DNA of 64,000 nucleotides from Acidobacteriota bacterium (GCA_003225315.1 QHZD01000023.1:90347-154346); one strand, 5' to 3'. Counted from the stretch's first letter, positions 1,395-35,072 are shown. The notes: generated from the sequence alone by a model not told the origin. Made by a program: numbers and translations.

Positions 1395-1410
1395 TGGTAA
1401 ACGTTTACCA
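1395..1410. promoter_or_regulatory. LacI-family operator-like perfect palindrome TGGTAAACGTTTACCA
   Basis: Perfect 16-bp palindrome with central CG and the AAACGTTT core typical of LacI/GalR operators, 50 nt upstream of the GH51 start. Confidence 0.75.
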
Positions 1411-1667: not shown

Positions 1668-3359
1668 TCACTGCGCCGGCTCAATAGCCTTCAATATCTG
1701 CCCGGCCTTGACGTTCTCGAATCTCTGGACAACCCCGGACGGCCACCGGATTTCGACCAACTTGGCAATGGAATCGCTGCCGAGGCCCGCTATCAACCGT
1801 TTGTCACTAGCTGAAAGATATCCGACGGCCGTATTAACGGTGAAATATTGCGCCAACCCAGACGCGGACACAACTCTTACGCTACAGCCAGTGCCGTCAC
1901 GGTTTGATTTTCTGCCGATGGTTTGTATCCCTAACCACTTTCTGTTGTTCCCACCGTCATTTCGCAGCACGTAAGCTCTTTGACCCACGTTGCTGACCAC
2001 GATGTCGACATCACCGTCGTTGTCGATATCGCCGAACGCCGCACCCCGGCCCGCCCATTCTTTTTGAAAAACGGCGCCGGGAACTACCCTCACGAAATGG
2101 CCAGACTCGTTCCGCAACAGCAGCGGTGGCTCGAGGTATTTCATGTTGGGTGAGGTTTGCTCGATAGTGTCCATCACATGCCCCTGCGCAACGAAGAGAT
2201 CTTTCCAGCCATCATTGTCGTAATCGAACAAATGCGTACTCCAACCGGAAAAAGCGAAAGTCCAGCCGCCCATGCCGGACGGGTTGGTCACATCCTGGAA
2301 GGTGCCTTCGCCGTTGTTGTGAAAGAGGTGATAGCGTTCATTAGAAAGGTCCGTGACGACAATGTCGGGGCGACCGTCATTGTCGTAATCGCTGAAGTCG
2401 GCCCCCATCCCTGCAAACACTTTGCCGTCCTCATTGTAGGCAACGCCTGCGGGAAGGCCGACTTCGGTGAACGTGCCATTTCCGTTGTTGTGGTACAAGA
2501 AGCTAGCCACCGAATCGTTGGCGACAAAGATGTCCGTGAAGCCGTCGTCGTCATAATCGGCAAAAGATACCCCTAGTCCTTTGCCTTCAGGGTTAGCAAT
2601 GCCAGCCTTCGCGGAAACGTCGGTAAATGTTCCGTCCCCATTATTGTGATAGAGGATGTTCGCGACGCCCTTGAAATTGTCGGGGTGACAGTAGGCCCGC
2701 AAGCCGGGTTTCTGTTCTCCACAATAGCGGTTGTTCCGGAAGCTCCAATCCACATAACGGGTCACGAAGAGGTCGAGGTTGCCGTCATTGTCGTAATCGA
2801 AAAACCCGGCGCTCGCACTCCATCCGCCAGCGACAACTCCGGCGCGTTTCGTTACGTCGGTGAAAGTGCCGTCCCCATTGTTATGATAGAGCGTGTTCCC
2901 GCCATAGCCTGTTACGTAGATGTCTTCAAAACCATCATTGTCGTAGTCGCCCACCGCCACACCCATCGGATAGTAGTTCTGCGCCATCCCAGTGAGGCCG
3001 GCTTTTTCCGTCACATCCGTGAATGTGCCATCGGGGTTTTGATGATAAAGCCGGTTCCAAAACCTTCGATCGGTCTTGTCCGGAAGCTTGCCGTCCGGCA
3101 TCGGATCGTCGATCTTCGCGCCGTTGGTGAAGAAGATGTCCAGCCGCCCATCGTTGTCATAGTCCAGGAGGGCCACGCCTCCTCCCATAGTTTCCACCAA
3201 GTACTTGCTGGAAGTTGCCGAGTTTTCGTGCTTGAAATCGATGTTCGTGGACCGGGTGATATCGGTGAAATGCACCTCCGGACCGGCTGTGGCCGCGGTC
3301 ACACAGAAGAAAAGCCCAAAGGACACGACCCAGCGGCGCGCATTTGAATATCTTCCCAT
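1668..3359 (-). CDS. CRTAC1-family protein (FG-GAP/VCBS repeats + C-terminal ASPIC/UnbV), paralog 1
   Basis: Repeated DYDNDGxxD blades followed by HHNxxGTFTDV, GRGAAFGDIDNDGDVD, and C-terminal GYLSASDKRLIAGLG...VEIRWPSG. The ORF track opens at TTG 3455; ATG 3359 (MGRYSNARRWVVSFGLFFCVTAATAG, signal-like) is preferred. Confidence 0.9.
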   Translation of the reverse strand: MGRYSNARRWVVSFGLFFCVTAATAGPEVHFTDITRSTNIDFKHENSATSSKYLVETMGGGVALLDYDNDGRLDIFFTNGAKIDDPMPDGKLPDKTDRRFWNRLYHQNPDGTFTDVTEKAGLTGMAQNYYPMGVAVGDYDNDGFEDIYVTGYGGNTLYHNNGDGTFTDVTKRAGVVAGGWSASAGFFDYDNDGNLDLFVTRYVDWSFRNNRYCGEQKPGLRAYCHPDNFKGVANILYHNNGDGTFTDVSAKAGIANPEGKGLGVSFADYDDDGFTDIFVANDSVASFLYHNNGNGTFTEVGLPAGVAYNEDGKVFAGMGADFSDYDNDGRPDIVVTDLSNERYHLFHNNGEGTFQDVTNPSGMGGWTFAFSGWSTHLFDYDNDGWKDLFVAQGHVMDTIEQTSPNMKYLEPPLLLRNESGHFVRVVPGAVFQKEWAGRGAAFGDIDNDGDVDIVVSNVGQRAYVLRNDGGNNRKWLGIQTIGRKSNRDGTGCSVRVVSASGLAQYFTVNTAVGYLSASDKRLIAGLGSDSIAKLVEIRWPSGVVQRFENVKAGQILKAIEPAQ

Positions 3360-3583
3360 GGCATGCCTGTCGAATCCTCTGGTTGCTAACAATTCCTTCG
3401 CTTTCCTGCAGGACAAAAGGTGATTGGCGTGCGAGCTCAGAAAGCTCTCCTTCAAGCCAGCAGGCCACGCGAGATCTACGCTTTCTACCTTCGTGGCGCG
3501 GCCCAGACCGACTCCTGATTCAGGCTTACCGCTTTCTTAAGGCTATTTTCAGTTCCGGAATACACATGAGCATTCATGGTCAT

Positions 3584-3649
3584 GCTGCCAACGGCCAGTA
3601 TGATAACGCAGCGTCGGGATGCCACCGAAGCTAATCCTCCAAGGTTCGG
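3584..3649 (-). promoter_or_regulatory. Duplicated promoter-like block, copy A
   Basis: About 50 of ~66 aligned positions match 16861-16926, and 23/24 match in the core CCGAAGC(T/A)AATCCTCCAAGGTTCG. The minus strand reads TTCGGT-N18-TATCAT. Confidence 0.6.
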
Positions 3650-3926
3650 AACCGCCTCATTAATAATTGCGAGGACGGATCGTCCGGCCGGAGCTTTGCG
3701 GATTGGTAGGAGTTGGCTTGTCGTCTTTCGAGGATTCGCCGGGATTAGTCGTGGCGGGCTGATAGATCGCGGTATTTGATGAGACTCCGGGGAAATCCCG
3801 TTCGCGAGGAGGAACCGCCGTTTGCCAGCCGGTCCCAGTGCTGGCCTGAGGTACTCACTCGGCTTTCTTTCCAGGCAGCTTTTTCCAGGCGTGCAAGATA
3901 CTTCTTTGATCGTTCGAAAAAACTTC

Positions 3927-3988
3927 TTGACATCAGTGCTTCAGGAGGAGTATCAGTGCACGCAATGCCCTCGGGAAAACGTTTACCG
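3927..3988 (+). promoter_or_regulatory. Sigma70-like promoter with downstream LacI-type operator
   Basis: TTGACA (3927-3932)-N18-TATCAG (3951-3956); GGGAAAACGTTTACCG at 3973-3988 matches the 1395-1410 palindrome at 13/16. Confidence 0.6.
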
Positions 3989-4229
3989 GGGGCTTCAAGT
4001 TAACGGGGTGAACCTGAATCCTGCGTGAAAACGATCGAAATGGAGCTGGAACAGAGCAAATGGTGCGTTTTGAGGACTGGGCCCTTGGTTTCAAACCTCG
4101 CACTTAGGAGCGAGTGTTCCAAAGCCCGGATCAATCTCGAGACTAACTTTCAAGGCTGTTCCAAACCGCCCATCAGATGCTTTCACGCCGGAATGAGGTT
4201 GGGCGCGTAAGTTTGGGGGAGGTGTAAAG

Positions 4230-7200
4230 ATGAAGCGGCCATCAACTCTCGTGGTCCTTCTGTTGTGTGTTTTTGTCGTGTCCAGCGGGCAGAGCCTGTG
4301 TGCCCAGTTGGCCGACCGGGCTGAAATTACCGGTATCGTCACCGACGCAAGCGGTGCGGCGGTTCCCGATGCCAAGGTGTCGATCATCAACCAGGATACC
4401 GGTGCGAAAATAGTGGTGGGCACGAACAGTGCCGGAAACTACAGCACGCCCCCACTCCTCCTAGGTACCTACACTATAGAGGTCGAAAAAGAAGGCTTCA
4501 AGCATGCCACCCACCCCGGCATCATGCTGAGCGGCGCGCAGAGTTTCCGCCAGGATGTGAAGCTCGAACTCGGTTCGGTGACTCAGTCCGTCGAGGTCGA
4601 GGGTGGCGCAGCGCTGATTAACACTGAAAACTCAACGGTGTCTCACACGATTGGCGAGACCTACTATCGCGATCTTCCAGGAGTGATGGGGGCTGACATT
4701 CGTCTTGCCGAGTCCCTGCTGCAACTACAGCCGGGCTTTGTGCCCATGCAGCCGAACGGCGACGCGATTTTCCGCGGCAGCCAATTTACGTCGCGGATCA
4801 ACGGCGGCCAAACCATGGCCACGGAGAATTGGTTTGACGGCGCGGCTTTCGGCTATGCGGAAGGTCACCAAGGGACGCAGGAAAGCGCGGTGCCCTACCC
4901 CTCCGTGCAGGAAATGACAGTCGTCGAGAATACCTTTTCCGCACAGTACGGACACACTAGCGGCGGTTTTATCACCTATGCCACGAAATCCGGCACCGAC
5001 AAGCTGCATGGCAACGTCTACAATTTCTTCACCAACGATAAGCTGGACGCGGGGAACTTCTTTTTTGCCGGCATACCGACAATCCCGAATAAGAAACTGC
5101 CTTTGACCCAAGATAATTGGGGTGCTGCCGTGGGCGGGCCCGTTCCGAAGATTACCAAATGGGGCAAAACGTTCTGGTTCGTCAACGTGGACGGCCTCGA
5201 CTACCACAGCACGGTTAACACCGGTTTTGTGAACACGCTTCCGACGCCTCTCCAGAAGCAGGGCAACTTCAGCGAGTTCCTGGGAGCCCAAGCAACGGAT
5301 AAGTGTCCGGCGGGGACAGCAAATGCGGGCCTGGTTTACCCCGTCAGCGATCTTCTTGGCAATCCTATTCTTAAGGGTCAAATATACAATCCGGATCCGA
5401 CAACTTTCCAGACGGTCACAAAAACCACTGTTGACCCTTGCACGGGGAGTCCTATCACGGTGGTAAACGGTACTGTGCGCACGCCTTACGCGGGCAACAT
5501 TATCCCAGCTAATGACCCGCTGCGGAGCTCATTGGCGGCATTTATGATTCCCAACATCCCGGGGCTTGATCGCAACACATTAGCCGTTAACGGTTTTGGC
5601 GGAAGTTCGGACGATAATAACAAGATTAACGTCAGAACCTGGCTTTTCCGAATCGATCACACGTTCAACAGTAAGTTCTCCGTCAGCAACACCTACTACC
5701 AGAACAACCGGCCGCGCACCGCTCACTGCGGCGGGCCGCAGGGCTGCACCACGGTGCACAATGGACAGACGGATTCCGCGGCAAACGATACCTACATCGG
5801 CCAGGGATTCTTCCAGCGCATTACCAACCATTTCGAACACGTGCAGATGAACTGGGTGATCAAGCCGAACCTCTTCAATCACACCACACTGGCCTACGAC
5901 CGCTGGCATATGCAAGGCAACCAATTATCCGGAGGTGTAGGCTGGAATCAGAAGCTCGGACTCGGCCTGCCCAACCAAGCCATATTCAACAACGCCGGCT
6001 TTCCGTCGATTAACTTCAGTGGACCTCAAGGCTACACCGCTTACGGGACACCTTGGGCAAGCGGAGGGAGCGACATCAACAATCGCTATCAATTTCTCGA
6101 CGACATCACCTGGATTACCGGCAAGCACACGATCAAGGCCGGGCTGGAATTCCGCTATATGACTTTCCCGCAAACCGGCTGGGCCGTCAACACAGGAGGT
6201 AGTTTTAATTTCAGCGCCAACGAAACTGCCAACTACGATTTCAGAGGCGCTAACAGAAGCGATGTGAGTGGGAACGAGTTCGCCTCTCTCATATTGGGGC
6301 AAGTGAACAGTGCCAATTTCTCTGCACCGTTCAGTTATATGCCGAAGATGAGATATGGCTCTCCCTGGATCAACGACGACTTCAAGTTGACGCCCAAGCT
6401 TACGCTGACCTTGGGTATCCGCTTCGACTGGCAATCAGGGCTGTCGGAGCAGCACGGAAAGTTTTCCACATTCGATCCTACCGCTGCCAACCCTGTCGGC
6501 CATCTGGGAGCAACGGTATTCGGCGGCAGCAAGCCTATCGGGAACAGCAGTTGGAGCGTTGGTCCGCGCTTCGGCTTTGCGTATCAGATCAAGAACAAAA
6601 CCGTGATCCGCGGCGGATACGGGATGTACTATGCCGGTGCGCAGGCCGACTCGTGGGATCCTTACCCAGTGGACGGCTACCAAACCAACCCGGTGGCGCC
6701 GAATATAACCAATGGGTTATTTCCGGCGTTCTACTTCCAAGGAACCGGTAGCTGTCCGAGCGTGTATGGTCCCACCAACCCGGCTCCTTGCGGCTGGCCG
6801 ACAGGGTCCATCGTGCTCCCGCCCCAACTCAAGGCCGACGTAGCGAATGGCGGAAACCCCGTGGGCGTGGATCCCAAGACATACACGATGCCCCGCTATC
6901 AGAATTGGTCGATTTCGTTCCAGCGCCAACTGGGCCAGAACATGGCGGTCGATATAGCCTACGTGGGCAATCATGGGACGCGACTGATCGATGGCCGCAG
7001 CTCCGCCGGAGTATATGACAACATGAACCCCGGGAGTGTGCTCGCTTTGGGTAGCGTTCTCACGAACGGGCAATTCAGTAACGGTATTCCCAACCCCGCC
7101 GCGATTGCGGGGGGATTCGCGAGTCCCCCGTACCCGGGTTTCACGGGAACAGTGGCCCAGTCTTTGCGAACGTGGCCGCAGTACCGGCAGATCAATTGGC

Positions 7201-7967
7201 GCTATTTTCCAAACGGCAATAGCCACTACAACGCTCTCCAGGCTTCCTTTGACCGGCGCATGAGCCAGGGCCTGCAGCTCCGTGTTGCTTACACCTATTC
7301 CAGGCTCATGAATAACGGCTCGGAAACTGGGTTGGGAGCCGGGGGACCTCCCGTGCAGAATCCCAGCGATATGAGCGACCTATACACCGTCAGTTCCGAC
7401 GACGTGCCGCACATTTTCACTTTCGGCTGGATCTACCAGTTGCCCTTCGGCAAGAGTAAGCTGGTGGGAAGGAACGCGTCGGGGGTTTTGGACAAGCTCA
7501 TTGGCGATTGGCAAATCTCGGGGACTCAGACTTACCAATCCGGGAGACCGCTGTCCATTACCATGGCGAACAACAGCCTCGGCGGATATCTCTTTAACTA
7601 TACCGAATATCCCAATAAGGTAAGCGGCACCAAGGGATTGACCGGAAACTTCCACGACCCGAACAAGGACACTTACTTGAACTCATCAGCATGGGCCGAC
7701 CCGGGACAATTTGCCTTCGGTAATGCTCCCCGCGAGGATGCGAGCGTCCGTGGTTTTAGGTACTTTAACGAGGACTTCTCCATCTTCAAGGACACACACT
7801 TCGGCGAGGGTCGGTACGTTAGGGTCCAAGCCGACGCTGGCAACGTTCTCAACCGCGTTTTCTTTTGCCCGGTGGGCACGGCTTTAGGTAACGCCAACTT
7901 CGGGAAAACAGGCAGCCAATGCAATGTGCCGAGGCGAGTCCAGCTCGGGTTGCAAATTTTCTTCTAG
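4230..7967 (+). CDS. Acidobacterial Oar-like TonB-dependent receptor (N-terminal carboxypeptidase-regulatory-like domain)
   Basis: 1245 aa; signal peptide; ITGIVTDASGAAVPDAKV; FSAQYGHTSGG...TKSGTDKLHG plug motif; GPRFGFAY; C-terminal RRVQLGLQIFF (terminal Phe); GGAGG RBS. Confidence 0.93.
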   Translation: MKRPSTLVVLLLCVFVVSSGQSLCAQLADRAEITGIVTDASGAAVPDAKVSIINQDTGAKIVVGTNSAGNYSTPPLLLGTYTIEVEKEGFKHATHPGIMLSGAQSFRQDVKLELGSVTQSVEVEGGAALINTENSTVSHTIGETYYRDLPGVMGADIRLAESLLQLQPGFVPMQPNGDAIFRGSQFTSRINGGQTMATENWFDGAAFGYAEGHQGTQESAVPYPSVQEMTVVENTFSAQYGHTSGGFITYATKSGTDKLHGNVYNFFTNDKLDAGNFFFAGIPTIPNKKLPLTQDNWGAAVGGPVPKITKWGKTFWFVNVDGLDYHSTVNTGFVNTLPTPLQKQGNFSEFLGAQATDKCPAGTANAGLVYPVSDLLGNPILKGQIYNPDPTTFQTVTKTTVDPCTGSPITVVNGTVRTPYAGNIIPANDPLRSSLAAFMIPNIPGLDRNTLAVNGFGGSSDDNNKINVRTWLFRIDHTFNSKFSVSNTYYQNNRPRTAHCGGPQGCTTVHNGQTDSAANDTYIGQGFFQRITNHFEHVQMNWVIKPNLFNHTTLAYDRWHMQGNQLSGGVGWNQKLGLGLPNQAIFNNAGFPSINFSGPQGYTAYGTPWASGGSDINNRYQFLDDITWITGKHTIKAGLEFRYMTFPQTGWAVNTGGSFNFSANETANYDFRGANRSDVSGNEFASLILGQVNSANFSAPFSYMPKMRYGSPWINDDFKLTPKLTLTLGIRFDWQSGLSEQHGKFSTFDPTAANPVGHLGATVFGGSKPIGNSSWSVGPRFGFAYQIKNKTVIRGGYGMYYAGAQADSWDPYPVDGYQTNPVAPNITNGLFPAFYFQGTGSCPSVYGPTNPAPCGWPTGSIVLPPQLKADVANGGNPVGVDPKTYTMPRYQNWSISFQRQLGQNMAVDIAYVGNHGTRLIDGRSSAGVYDNMNPGSVLALGSVLTNGQFSNGIPNPAAIAGGFASPPYPGFTGTVAQSLRTWPQYRQINWRYFPNGNSHYNALQASFDRRMSQGLQLRVAYTYSRLMNNGSETGLGAGGPPVQNPSDMSDLYTVSSDDVPHIFTFGWIYQLPFGKSKLVGRNASGVLDKLIGDWQISGTQTYQSGRPLSITMANNSLGGYLFNYTEYPNKVSGTKGLTGNFHDPNKDTYLNSSAWADPGQFAFGNAPREDASVRGFRYFNEDFSIFKDTHFGEGRYVRVQADAGNVLNRVFFCPVGTALGNANFGKTGSQCNVPRRVQLGLQIFF

Positions 7968-7988
7968 GCTCGCCACCTGACTTAACCG

Positions 7989-8025
7989 CCGGTGGGTGGT
8001 CCGCAAAGTGCGGGCCACCTACCGG
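7989..8025. terminator. Stem-loop between convergent genes
   Basis: CCGGTGGGTGGTCCGC (7989-8004) pairs with GCGGGCCACCTACCGG (8010-8025) using two G-U pairs, 22 nt after the receptor stop. Confidence 0.65.
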
Positions 8026-8121
8026 ATTGTCTTTCTCCCTTCTATCCCGGGAGCCATCAATTTTCATATTGTGAAAGGACAACTCTTTCGGTCACCGGGA
8101 AACACCGCACGGCGGAAGTTT

Positions 8122-9996
8122 CTATCGCTTGCCAAATTGGTCGCGCCGAATTATGCCCCGGCCCTCTTGAATCACGAGCAATTGGTTCACGCTAACGTTT
8201 TTGAACGATTCCATCAGTCCCAAAGGCCATTGGACTTCAACCAAGTCTGCCTGCTTGGCCCGGCCAAGCCCAAAGTGCAGGCGAAAGTCATTTTGGGACA
8301 TGTAACTGGAACCGCTCATTACCTCATTGATTTGAGAATGCCGGCCAGTAACCACGCGCACGCGAGCGCCAACGGCGCTCCGATTGGACTTGGTACCGAT
8401 GCACTTGACCTTTAGCCAGTTGTTCCGCGAGCTGCAATCATTGCGGAGAAGCGAAGGCGCCTCGTTCATGTTTAGAACTGCGACGTCCACGTCTCCGTCG
8501 TTGTCGAAGTCTCCGAAGGCAGTCCCTCGGCTGCTGTGCGGCTGAGTTACGCCCGGTCCGGCGCTCGATGTAACATCTGTAAAGCTCCCGTTGCCGAGAT
8601 TCTTGTAGACAGTCTTTCCCTGTTTGAACGTCACGTGTAGTCTCTTCGTGTCGACGGTAGGGAAGACGTGGCCGTTGGACATGAAGATATCCGGCCAGCC
8701 GTCGTTGTCGAAATCAAAAAGTCCTACTCCCCATCCCAGATACTTCGTATTGACGCCCAATCCCGCCTGAAAGACAGCGTCATAAAATGTGCCGTCGCCG
8801 TTGTTATGGTATAGATTGGCGGTCTGGTCGGAATAGTTGGTCTTGACGATGTCGAGCCAGCCGTCGCAGTCGTAGTCGCCAACTCCCACGCCCATGCCGC
8901 CCTGGGCCGTCCCGTTCTCGTTGAGGGCACAGCCCGCGTCGCCGCCTATCTCCTGGAACGTTCCATCTTGATTGTTGTGGTAGTAACGGCTGGGGACGGA
9001 ATCGCACGCTACGTAGATGTCCGGCCAGCCGTCGTTGTCGAAGTCCGCCGCACACACTCCGAGTCCGTAAGAGCCCGCGGGCACCCACTGATTGCTGACA
9101 GAAGTCGGCGCCGTTGAGCCGCGCGGGACCGACACACCTGAGCGCTCGGAAACGTCCTCAAATGTTCCGTCGCCGCGATTGCGGTACAGGATGTTCGTCC
9201 CCCCACTCATCCCTTGCGGTCCGCATCCGACGGACAGACCATAATACCTGCAGTACTGGTTCTCGCCGGGTTGAGGCGCCACTCGAGGATCAAAATTCAC
9301 ATAGTTTGCAACAAACAAGTCGAGGTGGCCGTCACGGTCGTAGTCCACAAAACAGCAACCCGTGTTCCATCGCGGCGCTGGACCGTTTTGAACAAGGCCA
9401 GCCTTTTGCGTGACATCAGTGAATGTCCCATCTCCATTGTTGTGGTAAAGGACGATTGCACCCCAGTAAGTCACGACCAGATCGTCGTATCCGTCGTTGT
9501 CATAATCTCCGACGCAGCACCCCTGACCCCATCCCGAGCGAATCAGTCCAGTTTTCTCCGTTACGTCTGTAAAGGAGCCATCGCGGTTATTGTGAAACAA
9601 GAAGTTGGCCGGCTGATGTTGCGCCGAGATGCCTTCAAATCTCGTCCCATTGACCATAAAGATGTCCAGCCAGCCATCGTTGTCGTAGTCAAAAAGAGCG
9701 ACGCCACATCCGGTTTCCTCTAGGAGCAAGCGCTTATGCGTAACGCCGCCAAAAACGTTAATTGCTCCGCCCAAACCCGCCCTTGCGCTAATATCTGTGA
9801 AAGAAAATCTCGCCGCATGGCCAGGACTGCTCTGGGGTTTCCGGCTTGCAGGTGATGCCGGCGATCTTTGAAGTGCCGTCGCGTCATGCAGCCCTGTCAG
9901 CAGTAGAGACGCGGGCACCACGGAGCCCAAACGGCCAAGTTGGCGGAGAAAGTCACGCCGTGATCCTGAGAGATTGCTGAGCAGACGAAGGCTCAT
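8122..9996 (-). CDS. CRTAC1-family protein, paralog 2 (Tat-like signal)
   Basis: SRRDFLRQLG; repeated D(Y/F)DNDGWxD blades; SRGTAFGDFDNDGDVD; SSYMSQNDFRLHFGLG...VEVQWP. Confidence 0.92.
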   Translation of the reverse strand: MSLRLLSNLSGSRRDFLRQLGRLGSVVPASLLLTGLHDATALQRSPASPASRKPQSSPGHAARFSFTDISARAGLGGAINVFGGVTHKRLLLEETGCGVALFDYDNDGWLDIFMVNGTRFEGISAQHQPANFLFHNNRDGSFTDVTEKTGLIRSGWGQGCCVGDYDNDGYDDLVVTYWGAIVLYHNNGDGTFTDVTQKAGLVQNGPAPRWNTGCCFVDYDRDGHLDLFVANYVNFDPRVAPQPGENQYCRYYGLSVGCGPQGMSGGTNILYRNRGDGTFEDVSERSGVSVPRGSTAPTSVSNQWVPAGSYGLGVCAADFDNDGWPDIYVACDSVPSRYYHNNQDGTFQEIGGDAGCALNENGTAQGGMGVGVGDYDCDGWLDIVKTNYSDQTANLYHNNGDGTFYDAVFQAGLGVNTKYLGWGVGLFDFDNDGWPDIFMSNGHVFPTVDTKRLHVTFKQGKTVYKNLGNGSFTDVTSSAGPGVTQPHSSRGTAFGDFDNDGDVDVAVLNMNEAPSLLRNDCSSRNNWLKVKCIGTKSNRSAVGARVRVVTGRHSQINEVMSGSSYMSQNDFRLHFGLGRAKQADLVEVQWPLGLMESFKNVSVNQLLVIQEGRGIIRRDQFGKR

Positions 9997-10000
9997 TTGA

Positions 10001-11599
10001 TCAGTCGGGTAACAGCAATCGGAGTTTCAAGTCCGTCTGCGAACTCCGCTCTGCCTCAAGCTTGCGTGACTCGGCAAACTGACTATCGGACTCGGCGGTT
10101 CTGCCAAGACGGCGAAACAACAAGCCGAGCTGATAGTGGGCTTGCACGGACCCGGGATCGAGCAGAACCGCGCGTTCAAGTTCTTCCTGGGCTTCGTCAT
10201 AGTGGTGCTGTCTCAAAAGTATGCTCCCCAGCTTGACACACGAAGGCGCATGCTCGCCGTGACTCCTGAGCAGGTCGCGAAACACCACAACAGCCCGATC
10301 ATCCTCGCCAAGCGCATCATAAGTAAGGCCCAGGTAGTAGGAAGCCGCAACCTGATCGGGCTGCGCTTGCAGGCTTTGTTTGAGCAAGGACTCGGCCTCG
10401 GGGTACTTGCCCTGCAGGTAGTTCACTGCCCCGATCGAATACTTCACGACGGCATCATGCGGATGCTTTTGTAGTAGCCGTGCGAATAGCGACGCAGCTT
10501 TGGAGAGGTTGCCTCTAGCGACGTTGGCGGAAGCCAAAACATAGACGTACGGATCCCGGTCGGGTTTTAGCGCGACTGCCTTTTCGAGCGCAGGCAAAGC
10601 ATCCTCCAGCAGATTTCGCTGTAGGCACACTTTTCCGAACTCGAAAAGGATTTCAGGATCTTCAGGATCCAGTTGTTTCGCCGTGACCAGGTACGCCAAA
10701 GCCTTCTCTGTATTCCCTTGCCGCTCCGCAATCTCGGCAAGGCCCTGGTCACAAACCGTGCACGCCGGGTTCAAGTCGAGCGCGCGTTGAAAGTTCTGCT
10801 CTGCTCTGTCCATAACTCCCAGGGACAAGTAGCTTTTTCCGAGCTGCAAGGCTAGCGTGGGGGAAGGATGCTCAGCGCTCTTTACTTCTTCGGCTTCGAA
10901 AACCTGTTTCGCCTCGAGGATCATTCCGAACATCGTCAAGACATTGCCAAATTCCAGGGATGTTTCGTCGGACGCGGCGGGCAACTGCTGCCAGTTACGA
11001 ACCAGGCCCCTAAGGGCTTCTTTTTCCCCCAGCGAACCATAGTCCGTTGCCAGCAACAGAATACCGTCATCGGACTCGCTTAGTTGAGCTATGATCGGGC
11101 CTGCCACTTCCAAGGAATGCCGATAGTTATGGAGAGATGCATCAACCTTGGCCAATTCAAACCGGGCGTTGAAGTTCCCGGGATCGAGCTTCACAGCCTC
11201 CCGGAAGCTTCTCCGCGCCAAATCCGGTTTACCCTGCAATAAGTAAGCGTTTCCCAGACTCGTTCGAGCGCCCACCAAATGAGGATTAAGCGCTAAGGCC
11301 TGGGTTAGAAAGCTCGTGCTCTCTTTATATTTGCCTTCCTCCAGCCGGATCGTTCCCAGCATCGCCAAAGCCAGCGCTCGAGTGGGCGGATTTCCCAGGG
11401 CCTGGCGCGCTTCAGTTTCCGCCTGGTCCATTTGTCCCTGGCTCAGCAGACGCGCCGCCATCTCAATATGGTTGAGCTGTGCCAACCCGACGATGGGGAA
11501 AATCAGAAGTGCAAGACACAGCTTGTACCAGCAGAGTGCGGGCCCAGCCCGGCAAGCGCAGTGCCGGAGGAACTCTGCGCGCTCACCAAAACTGCGCAT
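10001..11599 (-). CDS. Exported tetratricopeptide-repeat protein
   Basis: 532 aa of TPR-like helices (ALALNPHL..ARTSLGNAY, AVLLDPGSVQAHYQLG); stop lies 4 nt before the CRTAC1 paralog 2 start. Confidence 0.88.
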   Translation of the reverse strand: MRSFGERAEFLRHCACRAGPALCWYKLCLALLIFPIVGLAQLNHIEMAARLLSQGQMDQAETEARQALGNPPTRALALAMLGTIRLEEGKYKESTSFLTQALALNPHLVGARTSLGNAYLLQGKPDLARRSFREAVKLDPGNFNARFELAKVDASLHNYRHSLEVAGPIIAQLSESDDGILLLATDYGSLGEKEALRGLVRNWQQLPAASDETSLEFGNVLTMFGMILEAKQVFEAEEVKSAEHPSPTLALQLGKSYLSLGVMDRAEQNFQRALDLNPACTVCDQGLAEIAERQGNTEKALAYLVTAKQLDPEDPEILFEFGKVCLQRNLLEDALPALEKAVALKPDRDPYVYVLASANVARGNLSKAASLFARLLQKHPHDAVVKYSIGAVNYLQGKYPEAESLLKQSLQAQPDQVAASYYLGLTYDALGEDDRAVVVFRDLLRSHGEHAPSCVKLGSILLRQHHYDEAQEELERAVLLDPGSVQAHYQLGLLFRRLGRTAESDSQFAESRKLEAERSSQTDLKLRLLLPD

Positions 11600-11772
11600 A
11601 TTCCTTCATCATAGCAAGCTGCCACAACCGGGGCAACTTCTTAGAGTTTTTGTGAACGCGCGAACACGCGAAAACATTGTGAGCGTGCGTCCGCAGGTGT
11701 AAATTCTCTTGTCAACGAGTTGGACGGTATTCTGCTGAAGTCGTGCAGCTATCTGGGGAGCTCCACAGCTTA

Positions 11773-13512
11773 ATGTTCAATCAGAGAAGGCCGCACATCC
11801 GCTCGCGCCGTGGCTTCCTGAAGCGTCTGCTCGCTGCGCTCGTCGGGGGCTATCTGCCACGCTCCCCACGACCATACTGCCTCGCAGCGCCTCAGAGCGG
11901 TGGCAAGTTTCCGTTTGAGCTTGTCCCGCCTGCGGTGAGCGGGATTACGTGGGTACACCACAACGGGCGCTCCCCGGAGATGTACTTGCCGGAAACCGTG
12001 GGTGCGGGATGCGCATTCATCGATTATGACAACGACGGCTGGATGGACATTTACCTGGTCAACAGCGGCAAGTGTGATTTCTTCGATCCCGAGTCACCGC
12101 TCCGCAATGCGCTTTACCGGAACAATCGCGACGGAACATTCACTGACGTGACCGAAAAGGCCGGCGTCGGCGGCGGCGGGTATGGGATGGGTGTGGCGGC
12201 CGGCGATTACGACGGCGACGGCTTGCCCGACCTCCTTGTGACGCAGTACAACGGCGTCATTCTCTACCACAACAACGGCGACGGCACGTTTAGCGATGTG
12301 ACCAGGAAAGCTGGCCTGCCCACCAAGGGCTGGGCATCGAGTGCCGTCTGGTTTGACTACGACAACGACGGAAAACTTGACCTCTTTATTTGCCGGTTTG
12401 TGGATTTCGACAAGTCCAAGAATAAGTTTTGCGGCAACCCTCAGACCGGCCAACGCTACTACTGCATCCCACGCGTCTACGACCCTATGCCGAGCTGGCT
12501 GTTCCACAACAATGGCGACGGCACTTTTACAGACGTCAGCCACGAGTCTGGGATCTCGAAGTCCCCCGGCAAGGCCTGGGGCGTCGTCGCCTGCGACATC
12601 AACAACGATGGGCGGATGGATTTATTCGTCGCCAATGACACAATGGCGAATTTCCTGTTTGTCAATCGTGGCAATGGGAAGTTCGAAGAGATAGGCCTTC
12701 AGGCCAACGTGGGCTACAGCGCCGAGGGGCGGCCGCGCTCCGGGATGGGGGTGGACTCCGCCGACTACGACCAGGACGGCTGGATGGACCTGTTCGTCAC
12801 CAACGTAGACCAGGAGATGTATTCGCTTTACCGCAACAATCGCGATGAGACCTTCGACGATATGGCCATTCCTTATGGCATTGGCAAGGTCACGCGCCTG
12901 ATGAGCGGCTGGGGTGTGAAATTTCTCGATTACGACAACGACGGCACGCCCGACCTCTTGCTTGCCAACGGCCACCCTGACGACAAAATCCAGGAGCATT
13001 CCAGCGAAGTGAAATACCGCGAGCCCATGTTGCTCTTTCACGGCACGGGCCGAGGATTCGAGAATGTGACGGCTGGCAGCGGTCCCGTTTTCTCAAAGCC
13101 ATATGCCGCACGCGGCATGGCGATTGGCGATTTCAATAACGATGGCGCCCTCGATGTGTTGGTCGCAATCAACAATGGGTCGCCTCTGCTGCTCAAGAAT
13201 CAGGTTGGCCGGCTAAGCCATTGGTTGGGCGTAAGACTGGTCGCGAAGGGAACCAATCCCGACGCTGTGGGTGCGCTGATTACCTGGCAGGCCGGAGACT
13301 TGAAGCGATCACACTTCAGGACGGGAGCGGGAAGTTATCTGGCCTCTCACGACCCGCGCGTGGTGTTGGGCATCGGCAGGCGCACCCAGATCGACTGGGT
13401 CGAGGTGAAGTGGCCGCTGCCAAGCGGCCGCGCGGAACGCTTCACCAATCTCCCAGTCAATCAATACATTACACTCGTGGAAGGGCAGGGGAACCCGCTG
13501 CGAAAACCTTGA
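11773..13512 (+). CDS. CRTAC1-family protein, paralog 3 (Tat-like signal)
   Basis: ATG 11773; [11 protein letters not shown]; [22 protein letters not shown]; [16 protein letters not shown]; [16 protein letters not shown]...VEVKWP. Confidence 0.92.
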
Positions 13513-13700
13513 TTAGTTCTTTGCTGCAGAGAGGTTCCAGATCTTGTAGACGGCCCGGCGACCTTCGTAGGACACAATGAGGATGTTCGCCAAACCTTCC
13601 CAAAGTGGTTTTGCGCCGCGCTACCGTCCCGCCCGAGGAATCCCTTCATCGGAATGCATCTGTAAGAAAGTTGCGGCGTGATTGCGCGCCGCGGAGTCCT

Positions 13701-16700
13701 CTAGTCGCGTTGGCTCTTCGGTTGAGGCGGGTTGGCGGAGCGATTTGCGAGATTTCGCCGCATTTCTTCCAGGTCGCTTGTTTCCTTCTCCAGGCGCGTG
13801 AACGAATCCAGAGCCTTTTGGCTATCTTCCAAGTTCCCAAGCCGCCGATAAATGTGGGCCAGAACGTAATAATACGAAGACGCTCGAGGATTTAATGAAA
13901 TGGCCCGGTTCAGGGCATCGAGAGCATCAATCAGCCCTCCCTGTGCTTCCCTGGCTTTTGCCTGCTGGAACCAGGCGCCATCAGACTTGGGATCGAGTTC
14001 CGACGCGGCCCGGGCGTACGCTAGAGCCTTTTCGGAATCACCCTTCCGATTGTAATACGCGCTGAGGTTCACATGCGCCGACGCGAACTTTCCCTTCATG
14101 GCTTCGTTGATCGCAATGGCTTTCTCATAACTCGCGACAGCTCCAGCGTCATCGCCCAGAGCCTCCTGAGCAAAACCCAGACCATCCAAACTTTCCACGT
14201 ACGAAGGGTCGATATGGAGTGCGGCTTCAAACTCCTTTCGTGCAACGCTCCAATTGTCCTGGATGGAGAATAATTTGCCCAAGTTGAAATGCATCTCAGC
14301 GGATTGCGGGTTGTACCGGATCCCCTGCTCGAACTCCGCCCGGGCGGCGTCGTACCTGCCAATGATCATCAGGTTGCGGCCGAGAATCTTGTGCGCCTCA
14401 GCATTTTGGATGTCGAGTTGGAGCGATTTCGTGAGCGCCTGAATGGATTCGCCGATTTTTCGTTGGGCGAACTGGCTGTAGCCCAAGGCATACCAACCCC
14501 AAGAGGTTTTCGGGTGCTCGTTGACATAAGCAGCCAGGAGCGGCTCAACCTCCTGGAATCGCCCCGCTCGGATGTAGCCTTCAAATTCGGCGATACCTTG
14601 GGAGTCGTCCGCAAGTGCCTGGTCCTTCGAAAGCAACTGGACTTTTTCTCTGGCGAAGACGTCGCCGGGATTGAACCCCACTGCCTTTCGATACGCCGCG
14701 GCAGCACCCTGAGCATCGCCTTCCTTTTCAAGAGCCACTCCCAAGAAATGCTGGGCGTCTGAAGATTCGGGCTGGAGCTCAACCGCGTGCCGAAATTTGG
14801 CGGCGGCTTGATCCAAATCACCTTTGTCGAGCGCCACGCGGCCTTCGACGATATCCAAATCAGCGTTCTGCCTCCGGTCGTCGGAGGAAGCCAATTCGCG
14901 GCTCTTCTGCAACTCAGCAGTGGCCTCATCCTTTTGTCCTGCCCGCGCCAGAGCCAGCCCAAGCTGGTAATGAGCCTTGGTATTCTGTGGCTCAAGCCGC
15001 GCCGCTTCCCGAAGCTCTCCGATAGATTCCTCCACTTTCCCGTCGCTGAGAAGTGCCTTACCCAAAGCGAGGCGCGCACGCGCAAAGTTTGGTTCGGTCG
15101 CGACTACCTTACGCAACTGTTCGATTTCTTTAGCCGGCCCAGAGCTCGGGTCTGACCCGTACGCCACCGCGAGATTGAACTGCGCTTTCAACAGTCCCGG
15201 GGCGAGCGCTACGGCTCGCTGGAGTTCCCGCACGGCCTCTCGACTGTCCGTAGGAATGAGGACGGTGCCTAGATTCGCGTGCGCGTCCGCATAATCGGGT
15301 CGGATGCGCAGAGCCTCACGAAACTCGGCGATAGCTGCTTTGTCCTCGTTGCCCTGCGCTAGCACCAGCCCTATGTTATTGTGTGCATCCGCGAAATCCG
15401 GGCGCAGGCGCACGGCCTCACGAAACTCCGCCAGAACATCTTTGCTGTCTGCACCCTTGCGTCCAAGCAGCAGTCCGAGCATGTTGTGCGCTTCGGCGCG
15501 GTCCGGCTTCGCAGCCAACGCTCCGCGAATGCCTGCAATCGCCATATCCCAATCGGGGCTGGGACCAGACGAAGCGGAAATATTGATCCCGGCCTCGAAT
15601 TGCGCCATCGCTTTATCGAGATCGCCTGCGCGAAGATAAACAGTTCCGAGGTCGATGTATGTGGCGGAGAAGGACGGCAGGAGCGCAATCGCGCATTGTA
15701 GGTTTCGTCGTGCGTTCTCTATCTGGCCCGTTTCGCCCAGAGCGGTTCCGAGAAAGGCGTAGCCAGCGCCTGCCGACGGATCAAGTCGAACAGCCTCTTG
15801 CAGCTCGGAAATGCCTTTGGTTTTCAAACCGCTGTACCACAGCGCAACACCAAAATTGTAGTGTGAGTCAGAAAGGTCCGGCCGGAGCGCTACGGCGCGC
15901 TCCAAGTGGACCAGCGCAGAAGGCAAATCTCCTCTTTGGCCTAGTATGAAACCGAGCAGATTGTGCGCGCCGGCGTGACTGTCATCTTTACTTAGGGCTT
16001 CGCTGAGTAGTCGTTCGGCTTCTTTCAGGTCGCCTTGTGCGGCAGTCTGCTCTCCACGCTTGTAGAGGTCGTCTGCCGGACTCGCCAGAGGCTGGCGTGG
16101 CTTGCGCAGCGATGCAGCCTGCTTCTTCAAGGCCAAGCCGAGCGCATAATAACCTTCGTGGAATTCCGGATTGATGCGCACCGAGCTCTCAAACGCTTCG
16201 ATTGCGCCCTGAAGATCTGCGCTCTGTTGTAGCGTCTGGCCGAACACGTACTGAACATCGGCGCTGTCCGGTTCGCGCTCGGCGACCAGCCGTAGATGCA
16301 CAAGAGCGCCCTTGGCATCACCTTTTTCCCGAAGAGCGACGCCCAGATTCAGGTGCGCCACTAGATTGCCAGGCTCGAGCGCGAGCGCTCTTTGAAAGGC
16401 CCCAACCGCTTCGGACAATTCGCCATTCTTGGCTAACGCCGATCCCAGGTTCGTGTACGCCCGCGCGTATTTTGGGTCAAGCGAGACGGCCTTCCTGAAT
16501 TCAGCGACGGCGCCGGGCAAATCACCTCTCTGCAATGTAGCGACACCTAACCAGTTGTGTGCCTCGGCAGAGGTGGGGCCCAACTTCACCGCGTGCTGAA
16601 AGGCTTCGAGAGCATGCAAGAAATCGTTCCGGTCCCAATACGCCAGGCCAAGCGCGACGTAGAGCTTGGGGCTGTCAGGATGTTGTTTTATTTCATCTTG

Positions 16701-16817
16701 AATCTGGCTGACCGATGCCGGCTCATTTTTACTTAGCTGTGCCCGGCCGGGCAGAATCGAACCCACCAGGAGAACGACCAAGCCTAGAGTTCGATTAACT
16801 TTCGCGCGACTGTCCAT
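13701..16817 (-). CDS. Large exported TPR protein (~1040 aa)
   Basis: More than 20 TPR-like units (AVSLDPKYARAYTNLG, AVRLRPDFADAHNNIG). The ORF track opens at 16919; ATG 16817 (MDSRAKVNRTLGLVVLLVGSILPGRAQ) gives a signal peptide and lies downstream of promoter-like block B. Confidence 0.88.
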   Translation of the reverse strand: MDSRAKVNRTLGLVVLLVGSILPGRAQLSKNEPASVSQIQDEIKQHPDSPKLYVALGLAYWDRNDFLHALEAFQHAVKLGPTSAEAHNWLGVATLQRGDLPGAVAEFRKAVSLDPKYARAYTNLGSALAKNGELSEAVGAFQRALALEPGNLVAHLNLGVALREKGDAKGALVHLRLVAEREPDSADVQYVFGQTLQQSADLQGAIEAFESSVRINPEFHEGYYALGLALKKQAASLRKPRQPLASPADDLYKRGEQTAAQGDLKEAERLLSEALSKDDSHAGAHNLLGFILGQRGDLPSALVHLERAVALRPDLSDSHYNFGVALWYSGLKTKGISELQEAVRLDPSAGAGYAFLGTALGETGQIENARRNLQCAIALLPSFSATYIDLGTVYLRAGDLDKAMAQFEAGINISASSGPSPDWDMAIAGIRGALAAKPDRAEAHNMLGLLLGRKGADSKDVLAEFREAVRLRPDFADAHNNIGLVLAQGNEDKAAIAEFREALRIRPDYADAHANLGTVLIPTDSREAVRELQRAVALAPGLLKAQFNLAVAYGSDPSSGPAKEIEQLRKVVATEPNFARARLALGKALLSDGKVEESIGELREAARLEPQNTKAHYQLGLALARAGQKDEATAELQKSRELASSDDRRQNADLDIVEGRVALDKGDLDQAAAKFRHAVELQPESSDAQHFLGVALEKEGDAQGAAAAYRKAVGFNPGDVFAREKVQLLSKDQALADDSQGIAEFEGYIRAGRFQEVEPLLAAYVNEHPKTSWGWYALGYSQFAQRKIGESIQALTKSLQLDIQNAEAHKILGRNLMIIGRYDAARAEFEQGIRYNPQSAEMHFNLGKLFSIQDNWSVARKEFEAALHIDPSYVESLDGLGFAQEALGDDAGAVASYEKAIAINEAMKGKFASAHVNLSAYYNRKGDSEKALAYARAASELDPKSDGAWFQQAKAREAQGGLIDALDALNRAISLNPRASSYYYVLAHIYRRLGNLEDSQKALDSFTRLEKETSDLEEMRRNLANRSANPPQPKSQRD

Positions 16818-16860
16818 CGACCCGCGTCCAACAGTCAAAGCTACAAATGAAAGTTGCCAA

Positions 16861-16926
16861 GCTGCCCAAGGCCTCGTATGATAGCGCATGATCGGATAAC
16901 GCCGAAGCAAATCCTCCAAGGTTCGA
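16861..16926 (-). promoter_or_regulatory. Duplicated promoter-like block, copy B
   Basis: Homologous to 3584-3649; minus strand TTCGGC-N17-TATCAT; spaced inverted repeat CCGAAGC-N11-GGTTCGA. Confidence 0.6.
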
Positions 16927-21313: not shown

Positions 21314-21396
21314 AGAATCCGGCTAAACGTAAATTGAGGATGCCTCTCGTAGGGGAAACATTGCCCAACGGCTCGCTGAGAATGGAGAACTTAAAG

Positions 21397-30785: not shown

Positions 30786-30902
30786 ATTGCATCAGAACGA
30801 AACTCTTTGAGTTGGATGAGCTTGGATGTCGGCATTAAACGTAATCTAGCAAGACTACTTGAAACGCTGCTAGCGAAGGTACGCGCCGCGAGGGCCACGC
30901 TA

Positions 30903-34890: not shown

Positions 34891-34910
34891 GCACTGTTTC
34901 CGTATGGGAG

Positions 34911-35040
34911 AGTATAGGGCGTCACTTCAACTCGGGTCAAATGACGAAAGCATAGCGCAGGCGAATGCTTTCGTATTCTTTCTCTTTGTGTCGTTCATGC
35001 TTTGTTTGTTGTTGCGTTTGCTTTTCTACTATGGTACATC
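34911..35040. promoter_or_regulatory. Divergent promoters with AgaR-type operator
   Basis: Minus strand: TTGACC (34940-34935)-N18-TATACT (34916-34911). Plus strand: TTGCGT (35012-35017)-N17-TACATC with extended TGn. Perfect inverted repeat ACGAAAGCAT-N11-ATGCTTTCGT (34944-34974) and CTTTC-N5-CTTTC (34968-34982). Confidence 0.7.
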
Positions 35041-35072
35041 GTTCCTCTGGATTATTTTGGGGGAGGTTCGCC

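Follow-up and report, generated by a model that had tools for sequence, protein, structure and literature searches.

In the polysaccharide utilisation loci (PULs) of Bacteroidota, a TonB-dependent transporter with an N-terminal CarboxypepD_reg domain forms the constant core, accompanied by variable carbohydrate-active enzymes (CAZymes) and a sugar-responsive regulator, and the position after SusD usually encodes extra surface glycan-binding proteins. In the carbohydrate utilisation loci with TonB-dependent transporters (CUT loci) of Proteobacteria, e.g. Xanthomonas and Caulobacter, TonB-dependent receptors (TBDRs) without SusD are clustered with glycoside hydrolases (GHs) and a LacI-type repressor. 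Acidobacteriota rank with the most abundant bacteria in soil and have a major part in the breakdown of plant polymers; because they lack SusD, their glycan uptake is poorly understood. Here, a stretch of 64,000 nt from a Terriglobia acidobacterium (GCA_003225315.1, QHZD01000023.1:90347-154346; hereafter the window) was analyzed by ORF (open reading frame) listing, translation and Pfam/NCBIfam scans. Its first part carries, in this order, GH51a, CRT1, an Oar-type TonB-dependent transporter, CRT2–TPR1, CRT3, TPR2 and GH51b (Table 1), where CRT stands for CRTAC1-family and TPR for tetratricopeptide repeat proteins. An earlier note on this DNA had listed a receptor, three CRTAC1, two TPR and two GH51 genes without a SusD gene, and every one of them was recovered where it had been placed. 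At the level of the system, the region is very probably a locus for TonB-dependent glycan utilisation under LacI control, in which TPR and CRTAC1 form a conserved accessory cassette, and this reading is well supported. The novelty would lie in an undescribed accessory pair of TPR and CRTAC1 proteins within an otherwise known kind of transporter-centred glycan locus.

The locus resembles both described systems. As in Bacteroidota PULs, a transporter with N-terminal CarboxypepD_reg domain is found as constant core with variable CAZymes and a putative sugar-responsive regulator, and CAZymes and regulator appear to be clustered with the transporter (GH51 on both sides, LacI-type operators, a LacI gene in the relative L090). 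GH127 and LacI neighbours occur in both phyla, and the order TBDR>TPR>CRTAC1 of some Acidobacteria mirrors the order SusC>SusD>VCBS in Hymenobacter and Chondrinema, where the VCBS protein contains a CRTAC1 module. In contrast to Bacteroidota PULs, the acidobacterial locus has no SusD-family gene, its barrel is of the OMP_b-brl_4 (Oar) type, and its TPR partner is a long canonical superhelix that is not a lipoprotein and is coupled or fused to CRTAC1, with TPR>CRTAC1>TBDR as the commoner order. No SusD family (PF07980, PF12741, PF12771, PF14322) was detected in any ORF scanned, neither in the module nor in the rest of the window, and the same search was positive in Hymenobacter. With CUT loci it has in common a receptor without SusD, GHs and putative LacI-type control, the operators being placed before the receptor gene and a GH gene; receptor, GH51 pair and operators lie in the window and the LacI gene outside of it, as seen in L090. 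Unlike CUT loci, the module has no inner-membrane sugar transporter inside (no permease was found within 1-19 kb; for the nearest gene of the major facilitator superfamily, MFS, see Table 1), and to our knowledge CUT loci have not been described with a TPR+CRTAC1 cassette.

Neighbourhood statistics, which the earlier note had proposed as a check, were obtained for 80 loci around CRT homologues (46-59% identity) on one-genome-per-species contigs, mostly metagenome-assembled genomes (MAGs) of Acidobacteriota. These loci were the top hits to a CRT2-like query, and ORFs were called by ourselves and classified with the window proteins; as some CRT genes were mis-called as antisense ORFs, CRT counts are slightly underestimated. 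The gene at position -1 of CRT was a TPR gene in 40%; 41 of these 44 lay on the same strand, the median distance was 13 nt and overlaps of 4 nt were frequent. The TPR share dropped to 7% at offset -4. When near genes (offset <=2) were compared with far ones (>=5), the odds ratio (OR) was 15 for TPR (p 1e-14), 20 for a further CRT (p 2e-8) and 3.0 for the transporter (p 0.012). Among the 47 loci with full flanks, a TPR gene was present in 79%, a transporter in 60%, both in 57% and more than one CRT in 40%. Recurrent operons were TPR (~500 aa)>CRT (~590 aa, with a twin-arginine translocation (TAT) signal)>TBDR (~1100 aa) and TBDR>TPR>CRT, of which the former was commoner. The conserved core across the 80 loci is a translationally coupled TPR>CRTAC1 cassette.

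CRT2 orthologues (66-96% identity) and TPR1 orthologues (62-100%) were found on the same metagenomic contigs. In the relatives L090 and L091, with CRT2 identities of 92% and 89%, the order TPR2-CRT3-TPR1-CRT2-TBDR-CRT1-GH51a was intact, and GH51a was followed by LacI and GH43 or by GH127. At 75-80% identity the core of TPR1>CRT2, transporter, TPR2 and extra CRTs was kept, and the neighbours varied between GH127/GH39/GH51/LacI, housekeeping genes, and an extracytoplasmic function (ECF) sigma factor with a kinase (one locus each); at 68%, TPR>CRT alone remained. Synteny spans 92% to ~50% identity, and the module also occurs in MAGs labelled as other phyla, labels that may contain binning errors. 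Because synteny in close relatives coincides with strong near-versus-far enrichment in the 80 loci, the locus genes are clustered far beyond chance. The single functional unit tied to glycan use that the earlier note had proposed was in this way supported by synteny at 75-92% identity, by the mutual local enrichment of TPR, CRTAC1 and transporter genes and by GH-rich flanks.

The coupling of TPR to CRTAC1 was also seen as gene fusion. Two loci (L003 and L028) contain single ORFs of 1633 and 1706 aa whose N-terminal parts match TPR2 (1049 and 997 bits) and whose C-terminal parts match CRT2 (801 and 772 bits), and in three others (L006, L013, L015) CRT-like proteins have C-terminal TPRs. Nine long family representatives that were scanned comprised three TPR-CRT, three CRT-TPR, one CXXCH-CRT (library protein P0349, with CXXCH fused directly to the CRTAC1 module) and one tandem CRT protein. 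Such fusions in both orders, a Rosetta-stone pattern, argue that TPR binds CRTAC1. TPR is coupled genetically and physically to CRTAC1, by 4-nt gaps or overlaps and by fusions in both orders, and not demonstrably to the receptor.

Around the cassettes, CAZyme genes were abundant. In an unbiased Pfam scan of the 157 non-core genes that lie inside clusters or up to two genes from them, at least 44 (28%) encoded GHs: GH127 (15), GH13 (6), MGH1/GH63-like (6), GH2 (4), GH51 (3) and GH31 (3), accompanied by GH130, GH43/32, GH97, GH42, trehalase, LacI and MFS among the top 25 families listed. In the control of 134 genes at least four genes from the cluster edge, GH29 (2 members) was the sole GH among the listed families with two or more members. 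Five GH families, measured on BLAST clusters labelled by Pfam, accounted for 14-15% of the non-core genes one or two positions away, for 7% at the third position and for 0-2% from the fourth onwards (OR 13, p 8e-9). This combination of invariable transport and accessory genes with changing enzymes is the logic of a PUL. GH51 was considered as a defining member of the module, since the earlier note had described the genes as enclosed by two of them, and was rejected: GH51 was near only 3 of the 47 full-flank loci, GH127 was the commonest neighbour, and the GH51 enclosure is specific to this lineage. MFS permeases recurred in 8 related loci, and sugar-catabolic genes were also recurrent neighbours.

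In L068, a 1045-aa GH54-type alpha-L-arabinofuranosidase (ArabFuran-catal, E 1e-122) is encoded divergently from the receptor of a TPR>CRT cassette, and the same LacI-type operator as in the window occurs between the two genes. The presence of this GH54 gene, and of GH127, GH51, GH43 and GH39 neighbours elsewhere, suggests that the CRT2-like branch often deals with arabinose-containing glycans. A distinct type of locus was observed in which a TAT-signal CRT and a convergent Sec-signal CRT stand beside a GH13 alpha-amylase gene and a gene for a ~890-aa GH63-like protein (MGH1/GDE_C), usually without TPR or receptor within two genes (L004, L005, L007, L008, L010, L024, L055, L061).

A tblastn search against plasmids led to RefSeq-annotated loci of cultured, sequenced strains, in which the same pattern was found. 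On pACIX901 of Granulicella tundricola, trehalase and alpha-glucosidase genes are followed by TonB-dependent receptor>TPR>CRTAC1>CRTAC1 and, next along, by genes for a cytochrome c, a 780-aa TPR protein with 5 CXXCH and CRTAC1, and then GH88, a sugar-binding protein and an MFS porter. On pACIX902 of the same species, LacI, an alginate-lyase-family protein, GH88, TPR and a multihaem cytochrome are encoded next to receptor>CRTAC1>esterase>GH30>GH28, and in Acidisarcina polymorpha receptor>CRTAC1>TPR is flanked by GH172 on one side and DUF2961, LacI and FucP on the other. On two Bacteroidota plasmids, SusC>SusD (PF07980 confirmed) is followed by a ~1100-aa 'VCBS' protein, the N-terminal half of which is a CRTAC1 module (FG-GAP_3 and UnbV_ASPIC). 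The Hymenobacter locus also has GH127 and LacI, and the Chondrinema locus has GH92 and ECF sigma/FecR and a VCBS protein with a lipobox. Since CRTAC1 modules stand directly after genuine SusC/SusD, they coexist with SusD; CRTAC1 would accordingly be an extra component, and the idea of a CRTAC1 protein in place of SusD was abandoned.

CRT1, CRT2 and CRT3 (41-46% pairwise identity) each consist of six FG-GAP_3 matches (1e-56 to 3e-66) followed by a C-terminal UnbV_ASPIC domain (1e-14 to 1e-22) and, by this domain order of FG-GAP/VCBS repeats and UnbV_ASPIC, are assigned to the CRTAC1 family; their relatives carry the NCBI name 'CRTAC1 family protein'. Seven D-x-D/N-x-D/N-G loops per protein are predicted Ca2+-binding sites. 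An AlphaFold2 (AF2) model of CRT2 (predicted local distance difference test score, pLDDT, 82; predicted template modelling score, pTM, 0.85) had murine CRTAC1 (9ETN) as best Foldseek match (E 1.1e-30, TM-score 0.64/0.72), followed by the seven-blade GlcNAc lectins PVL, PAL and AAL2 (E ~1e-10, target TM-score ~0.5) and then by aldos-2-ulose dehydratase. A sequence profile likewise matched CRTAC1 (E 1.5e-26, last blades and UnbV/ASPIC domain) and integrin alpha. With vertebrate CRTAC1 (cartilage acidic protein 1/LOTUS) the bacterial proteins share the FG-GAP propeller and the UnbV/ASPIC beta-sandwich; they differ from it in that they lack the EGF-like domain, bear Ca-type loops on each of the seven blades, are equipped with TAT or Sec signals and have TPR, transporter and CAZyme genes as neighbours. 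The PVL-type fungal lectins (Psathyrella velutina lectin, PAL, AAL2), which are seven-blade, integrin-like, GlcNAc-binding propellers, are the best fold matches outside CRTAC1 in this model; at ~18-20% identity to CRT2 and without UnbV/ASPIC, the likeness is one of fold only. The earlier proposal that CRTAC1 is glycan-binding or catalytic is compatible with these nearest modelled folds, Ca-propeller GlcNAc lectins and a sugar dehydratase.

An invariant Cys pair and His443 lie outside the Ca loops of the CRTs. By simple signal assignments on crude N-termini, lipobox-like matches were rare (3/107 CRTs, 4/91 TPRs). Twin-arginine signals were observed on GH51a (RRSFL), CRT2 and CRT3, whereas CRT1 has a Sec-type signal; TAT export may thus serve several exported proteins of the locus. 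At 50% identity, the representative library contains 13,477 clusters of the CRTAC1 family (E<=1e-30). In full-text literature searches, no function assigned to bacterial CRTAC1 proteins and no description of a bacterial CRTAC1/TPR/transporter module were found, and ASPIC/UnbV was mentioned only as an expanded paralogue family, together with 'CnaB-type' and TonB-receptor families, of Candidatus Solibacter usitatus (PMC3174227). Long antisense ORFs (~590-650 aa) were observed over FG-GAP/CRTAC1 genes in L038, L045, L075 and one BLAST cluster, a possible source of mis-annotation in MAGs by longest-ORF callers.

TPR1 and TPR2 have N-terminal hydrophobic Sec-like signals without lipobox, and neither contains CXXCH. 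The AF2 model of TPR1 (pLDDT 88.7) is a 14-repeat superhelix that resembles the TPR domains of OGT, Ctr9 and APC in Foldseek. No SusD was among its top 50 PDB matches, and the TPR proteins gave no SusD Pfam match. Together with the few lipobox matches, this speaks against the earlier suggestion that TPR proteins act as SusD-like lids. In TPR1, the pair C280xxC283 and C325 are invariant in 34 orthologues; TPR repeats seldom need cysteines, and TPR2 has one Cys. A variant TPR partner with an N-terminal multihaem cytochrome c (5-7 CXXCH; Cytochrome_C554, Paired_CXXCH) was observed directly upstream of TAT-signal CRTAC1 genes (Table 1) and suggests electron transfer to or from the propeller. After the CRT gene of such cassettes, an ORF of ~145-155 aa without Pfam match is conserved (L021, L022, L026).

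The receptor barrel was identified as PF25183 OMP_b-brl_4 (E 5e-167) with a weak match to PF00593. The Pfam Plug domain was not detected in the receptor, phmmer against the PDB gave nothing, and none of the NCBIfam models, those for SusC/RagA among them, matched it at E<=1e-5. A profile of 30 family members matched the plug regions of FusA (4ZGV, E 3e-6), PqqU (9C4O) and YncD (6V81); with a predicted N-terminal plug within a large beta-barrel, the protein is classified as a TonB-dependent transporter. Myxococcus xanthus Oar, which is tied to protein export and development and not to CAZyme loci, has the same architecture of CarboxypepD_reg and large barrel, by Pfam families and not by alignment to Oar itself. 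Across the loci, the transporters next to the cassettes were very diverse members of the Oar-type family. That they form one dedicated subfamily was rejected, as they scored poorly against the window receptor and about equally against the unrelated second receptor of the window. Such diversity would look like substrate-specific importers paired with a generic accessory.

Two near-identical LacI-type palindromes, O1 and O2 (Table 1), are the sole such sites in the intergenic DNA of the 64 kb window; the operators of the locus have the general form GGTAAACGTTTACC. Three copies of this operator are present in L090, located upstream of the transporter by 243 nt, of GH51a by 65 nt and, in slightly degenerate form, of the LacI gene after GH51a (15215-16240 in L090) by 78 nt. 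The operator was also found upstream of GH51a in L091 and upstream of the module receptor in L082 (224 nt) and L068 (80 nt). Because the operator is conserved at the transporter, GH51a and the LacI gene, a LacI-family repressor encoded just beyond the left edge of the window is the likely regulator. The operators shared within the module, as noted earlier, hold for the receptor and GH51a and not for TPR1-CRT2 and CRT3, whose promoters carry neither operator nor the block described below; coverage perhaps extends to CRT1.

The shared promoter block of the earlier note is real. It consists of two copies of ~90 nt with a TATGAT -10-like hexamer and a 23-nt core (chance expectation 0 matches), one far upstream of the transporter and one 33 nt upstream of GH51b. 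Thus the transporter has the operator in common with GH51a and the block with GH51b, one element per GH51 gene. The 23-nt core was absent from 83 loci searched and turned up only in the 92% relative L090, so that the block is lineage-specific and not general to the module. CRT1 and the transporter are separated by an unusually long divergent intergenic region, which contains both block and operator; should the block act as promoter, the leader of the transporter would be ~620 nt. Scans for sigma-70 promoters and terminators gave matches no more frequent than in shuffled sequence, with TATGAT inside the block as the useful yield, and an Rfam scan of 1-20 kb detected no RNA family. Most direct and inverted repeats in 1-20 kb were rejected as regulatory elements, as they are coding echoes of FG-GAP blades in the three paralogues.

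On this basis the following mechanism is proposed. The Oar-type transporter would import oligosaccharides, here probably from arabinose-containing plant glycans, after release or trimming by the two GH51 enzymes. Transporter and GH51a are likely under the control of a LacI-family repressor that acts at the two palindromic operators, and the common promoter block may link GH51b to the transporter. The three CRTAC1 propellers and two TPR proteins appear to be members of an ancient and widespread TPR+CRTAC1 cassette, in which the TPR superhelix may serve as a protein scaffold that binds its CRTAC1 partner and the seven-blade propeller with its Ca loops would be the working part, most likely a lectin-like accessory of the transporter that captures or hands over glycans, comparable in role to those surface proteins of Bacteroidota that bind glycans and whose genes follow SusD. 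Since the proteins have TAT or Sec signals and are not lipoproteins, they are expected to act in the periplasm or as secreted or outer membrane-associated soluble complexes. The lectin-like role is favoured because of the fold neighbours, the position in Bacteroidota PULs and the multiple paralogues per locus. That the region is a PUL-like (CUT-like) locus in which CRTAC1 is a lectin-like accessory on a TPR scaffold is, in this full form, a reading to which we give an even chance.

Several observations weigh against the lectin-like accessory. The 80 loci are biased to Acidobacteriota, and the ORF calls were crude and include some antisense artefacts. The transporter link (OR 3) is weaker than the TPR link, 40% of the clusters have no adjacent transporter, the adjacent ones are very diverse, and the prototype Oar is reported to serve protein export. 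Three features that a plain lectin model leaves unexplained give a hint of a redox enzyme instead: TAT signals on ~60% of the CRTs, the repeated presence of multihaem cytochrome c, as a fusion or as a neighbouring gene, with the TPR or CRT partner, and recurrent AhpC/TSA-type neighbours. According to the main rival explanation, CRTAC1 is a periplasmic metal- or cofactor-dependent enzyme (oxidoreductase, dehydratase or lyase) that acts on sugars, imported or extracellular, and the TPR protein docks a multihaem cytochrome c onto it as electron-transfer partner, in a locus that still serves glycan utilisation. TAT-like motifs, counted with a permissive pattern on crude N-termini, were present in 64/107 CRTs and 12/91 TPRs, and TPR partners with 5-7 CXXCH stand directly upstream of CRT in five loci (L011, L021, L022, L026, L035). 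The cytochrome genes and the CXXCH-containing TPR protein of the Granulicella loci, the direct CXXCH-CRT fusion of P0349, the AhpC/TSA and redoxin neighbours, the invariant cysteines of TPR1 orthologues, the invariant Cys pair and His443 of the CRTs and the dehydratase among the top fold matches point in the same direction, as does the location of CRTAC1 genes between genes for haem-containing HZS-like subunits in other bacteria (PMC12758564). No known catalytic motif or cofactor-binding signature was found in the CRTs, however, and TPR1 and TPR2 of the window lack CXXCH. As GH51a, CRT2 and CRT3 all have TAT signals, TAT is weaker as evidence for a cofactor; export of hydrolases by TAT is known in some other bacteria. 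Moreover, the lectins exceeded the dehydratase in E-value and target TM-score, and the Bacteroidota homologue occupies a position typical of glycan-binding lipoproteins. We therefore rate the enzyme as rather unlikely.

Three further explanations were considered. The transporter may work outward and export CRTAC1-TPR complexes, delivered by TAT or Sec, to the surface or medium to act on polymers. Myxococcus Oar has been reported as needed for secretion of the protease PopC, the window transporter is built like Oar, neither CRT nor TPR has a lipoprotein anchor although both are exported, and the order TPR>CRT>TBDR was present in at least 10 loci. Yet the diversity of the transporters is that expected of substrate-specific importers, the transporter is preceded by LacI operators, genes for MFS sugar permeases and sugar catabolism recur nearby, and the cassettes without adjacent transporter do not fit, so that outward transport is improbable. 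Even less probable, in our view, is a role of TPR and CRTAC1 as assembly or stability factors for the large barrel, like BamD (a TPR lipoprotein) and BamB (a propeller lipoprotein) of the beta-barrel assembly machinery (BAM). It would draw on the analogous set of barrel, TPR protein and beta-propeller encoded together and on the protein-binding scaffold fold of TPR1, but many Oar-type receptors, including the second one of the window, have no cassette nearby, many cassettes have no receptor, several CRT paralogues per locus are common, CRT and TPR are not lipoproteins, and cytochrome fusions and GH adjacency would stay unexplained. Finally, expanded paralogue families might have clustered by chance or local duplication without joint function. 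The paralogue expansions in Solibacter and the second Oar-type receptor and further TPR protein elsewhere in the window fit this view, which is nevertheless hardly credible: it is already contradicted by the enrichment statistics, with a steep distance decay around CRT for all three families and the GHs, and also by start/stop codon overlaps, fusions in both orders, synteny over the whole range of identities including MAGs labelled as other phyla, and recurrence of the module in Bacteroidota PULs.

Within the favoured reading of a glycan-utilisation locus, the CRTAC1 family and its TPR partner have a close and specific place in transporter and CAZyme loci of Acidobacteriota, which turns a vague annotation into a concrete, testable system with Granulicella tundricola and Acidisarcina polymorpha as cultured carriers. 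Models of TonB-dependent glycan uptake could gain a further component, and the prediction of CAZyme clusters outside Bacteroidota could improve. More tentatively, and with some doubt, TPR+CRTAC1 may be a previously unrecognised cross-phylum accessory module, with Oar-type partners in Acidobacteriota and SusC/SusD in Bacteroidota, and CRTAC1 may represent a carbohydrate-active protein of a new class, which either binds glycans in a Ca-dependent manner as a subunit of the transporter complex or modifies sugars as an enzyme coupled to cytochrome. If true, this would point to the ancestral biochemical activity of vertebrate CRTAC1 and could hint at the original ligand of its propeller.

Table 1. 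Positions of module genes, control elements and further features in the window and, where a locus is named, in related loci.
Feature	Position	Strand	Remarks
GH51a, alpha-L-arabinofuranosidase, ArfA-like	<1-1345	-	3' part past window edge; NCBIfam NF051901 580 bits, residues 44-448
Operator O1 TGGTAAACGTTTACCA, LacI-type palindrome	1395-1410		51 nt upstream of GH51a start codon
CRT1, CRTAC1-family seven-blade FG-GAP propeller with UnbV/ASPIC	1668-3362	-	Pfam FG-GAP_3 1e-58, UnbV_ASPIC 1.4e-14; longest ORF reaches 3455
CRT1/transporter divergent intergenic region	3363-4229		867 nt
Promoter/leader block, copy 1	3561-3648	+	CRT1/receptor divergent region; TATGAT and 23-nt core
Operator O2 GGGAAAACGTTTACCG, LacI-type	3973-3988		243 nt upstream of receptor start codon
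Oar-type TonB-dependent outer-membrane transporter (predicted)	4230-7967	+	signal peptide; CarboxypepD_reg 33-113; plug ~130-250; barrel 251-1238
CRT2, CRTAC1-family propeller	8122-9996	-	TAT signal SRRDFL; Pfam, AF2, Foldseek; translationally coupled to TPR1
TPR1, exported 14-repeat TPR superhelix	10001-11599	-	Pfam, AF2; stop codon 4 nt before CRT2 start
CRT3, CRTAC1-family propeller	11743-13512	+	TAT signal SRRGFL; divergent from TPR1; FG-GAP_3 3e-66 and UnbV_ASPIC
TPR2, exported TPR protein, ~1038 aa	13701-16817	-	Pfam; longest ORF reaches 16919
Promoter/leader block, copy 2	16842-16925	+	33 nt upstream of GH51b
GH51b, divergent GH51-type arabinofuranosidase	16958-19045	+	Pfam Alpha-L-AF_C 7.7e-22 and ASD1_dom; N-terminal extension; signal peptide
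PQQ-dependent dehydrogenase propeller	19388-21313	+	PF01011 E 1.5e-223
DUF4832 protein	21157-22857	+	longest ORF
Second transporter locus	30807-38738
DeoR	34105-34890	-
Second Oar-type receptor	34965-38738
Nearest MFS gene	41888-43192
Cytochrome-TPR variant, L011	4573-6264	-
Cytochrome-TPR variant, L011	14010-16277	+
Cytochrome-TPR variant, L021	7739-10000
Cytochrome-TPR variant, L022	7778-9973
Cytochrome-TPR variant, L026
Cytochrome-TPR variant, L035	7381-9291
Cytochrome-TPR variant, L084	16420-18762	-
ORF after CRT in cytochrome-TPR cassette, L021	11859-12320
ORF after CRT in cytochrome-TPR cassette, L022	11851-12294
GH54-type arabinofuranosidase gene, L068	15595-18732	+	divergent from receptor of TPR>CRT cassette; LacI-type operator between

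GH51b scored 188 bits against the NCBIfam ArfA model, which is under the cut-off. The remaining ORFs of the window encode a pyrroloquinoline quinone (PQQ) dehydrogenase, a DUF4832 protein, an AXE1-like esterase, a protein with carbohydrate-binding module family 9 (CBM9), a BNR/sortilin protein, a DUF5107-TPR protein, DeoR, the second Oar-type receptor, DeoC, PfkB kinases, MFS, melibiase and an FGGY kinase, by which the rest of the window is classified as a putative sugar-catabolic island. The PQQ-dependent dehydrogenase propeller is encoded directly downstream of GH51b. It is overlapped by 157 nt by the longest ORF of the DUF4832 protein, the start of which is probably mis-set, and the sugar island goes on with the AXE1-like esterase and the CBM9 protein. 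The second transporter locus comprises genes for a DUF5107+TPR protein (1103 aa), DeoR, the Oar-type receptor, DeoC and two PfkB kinases and has no CRTAC1 gene, so that Oar-type receptors also exist without the cassette.

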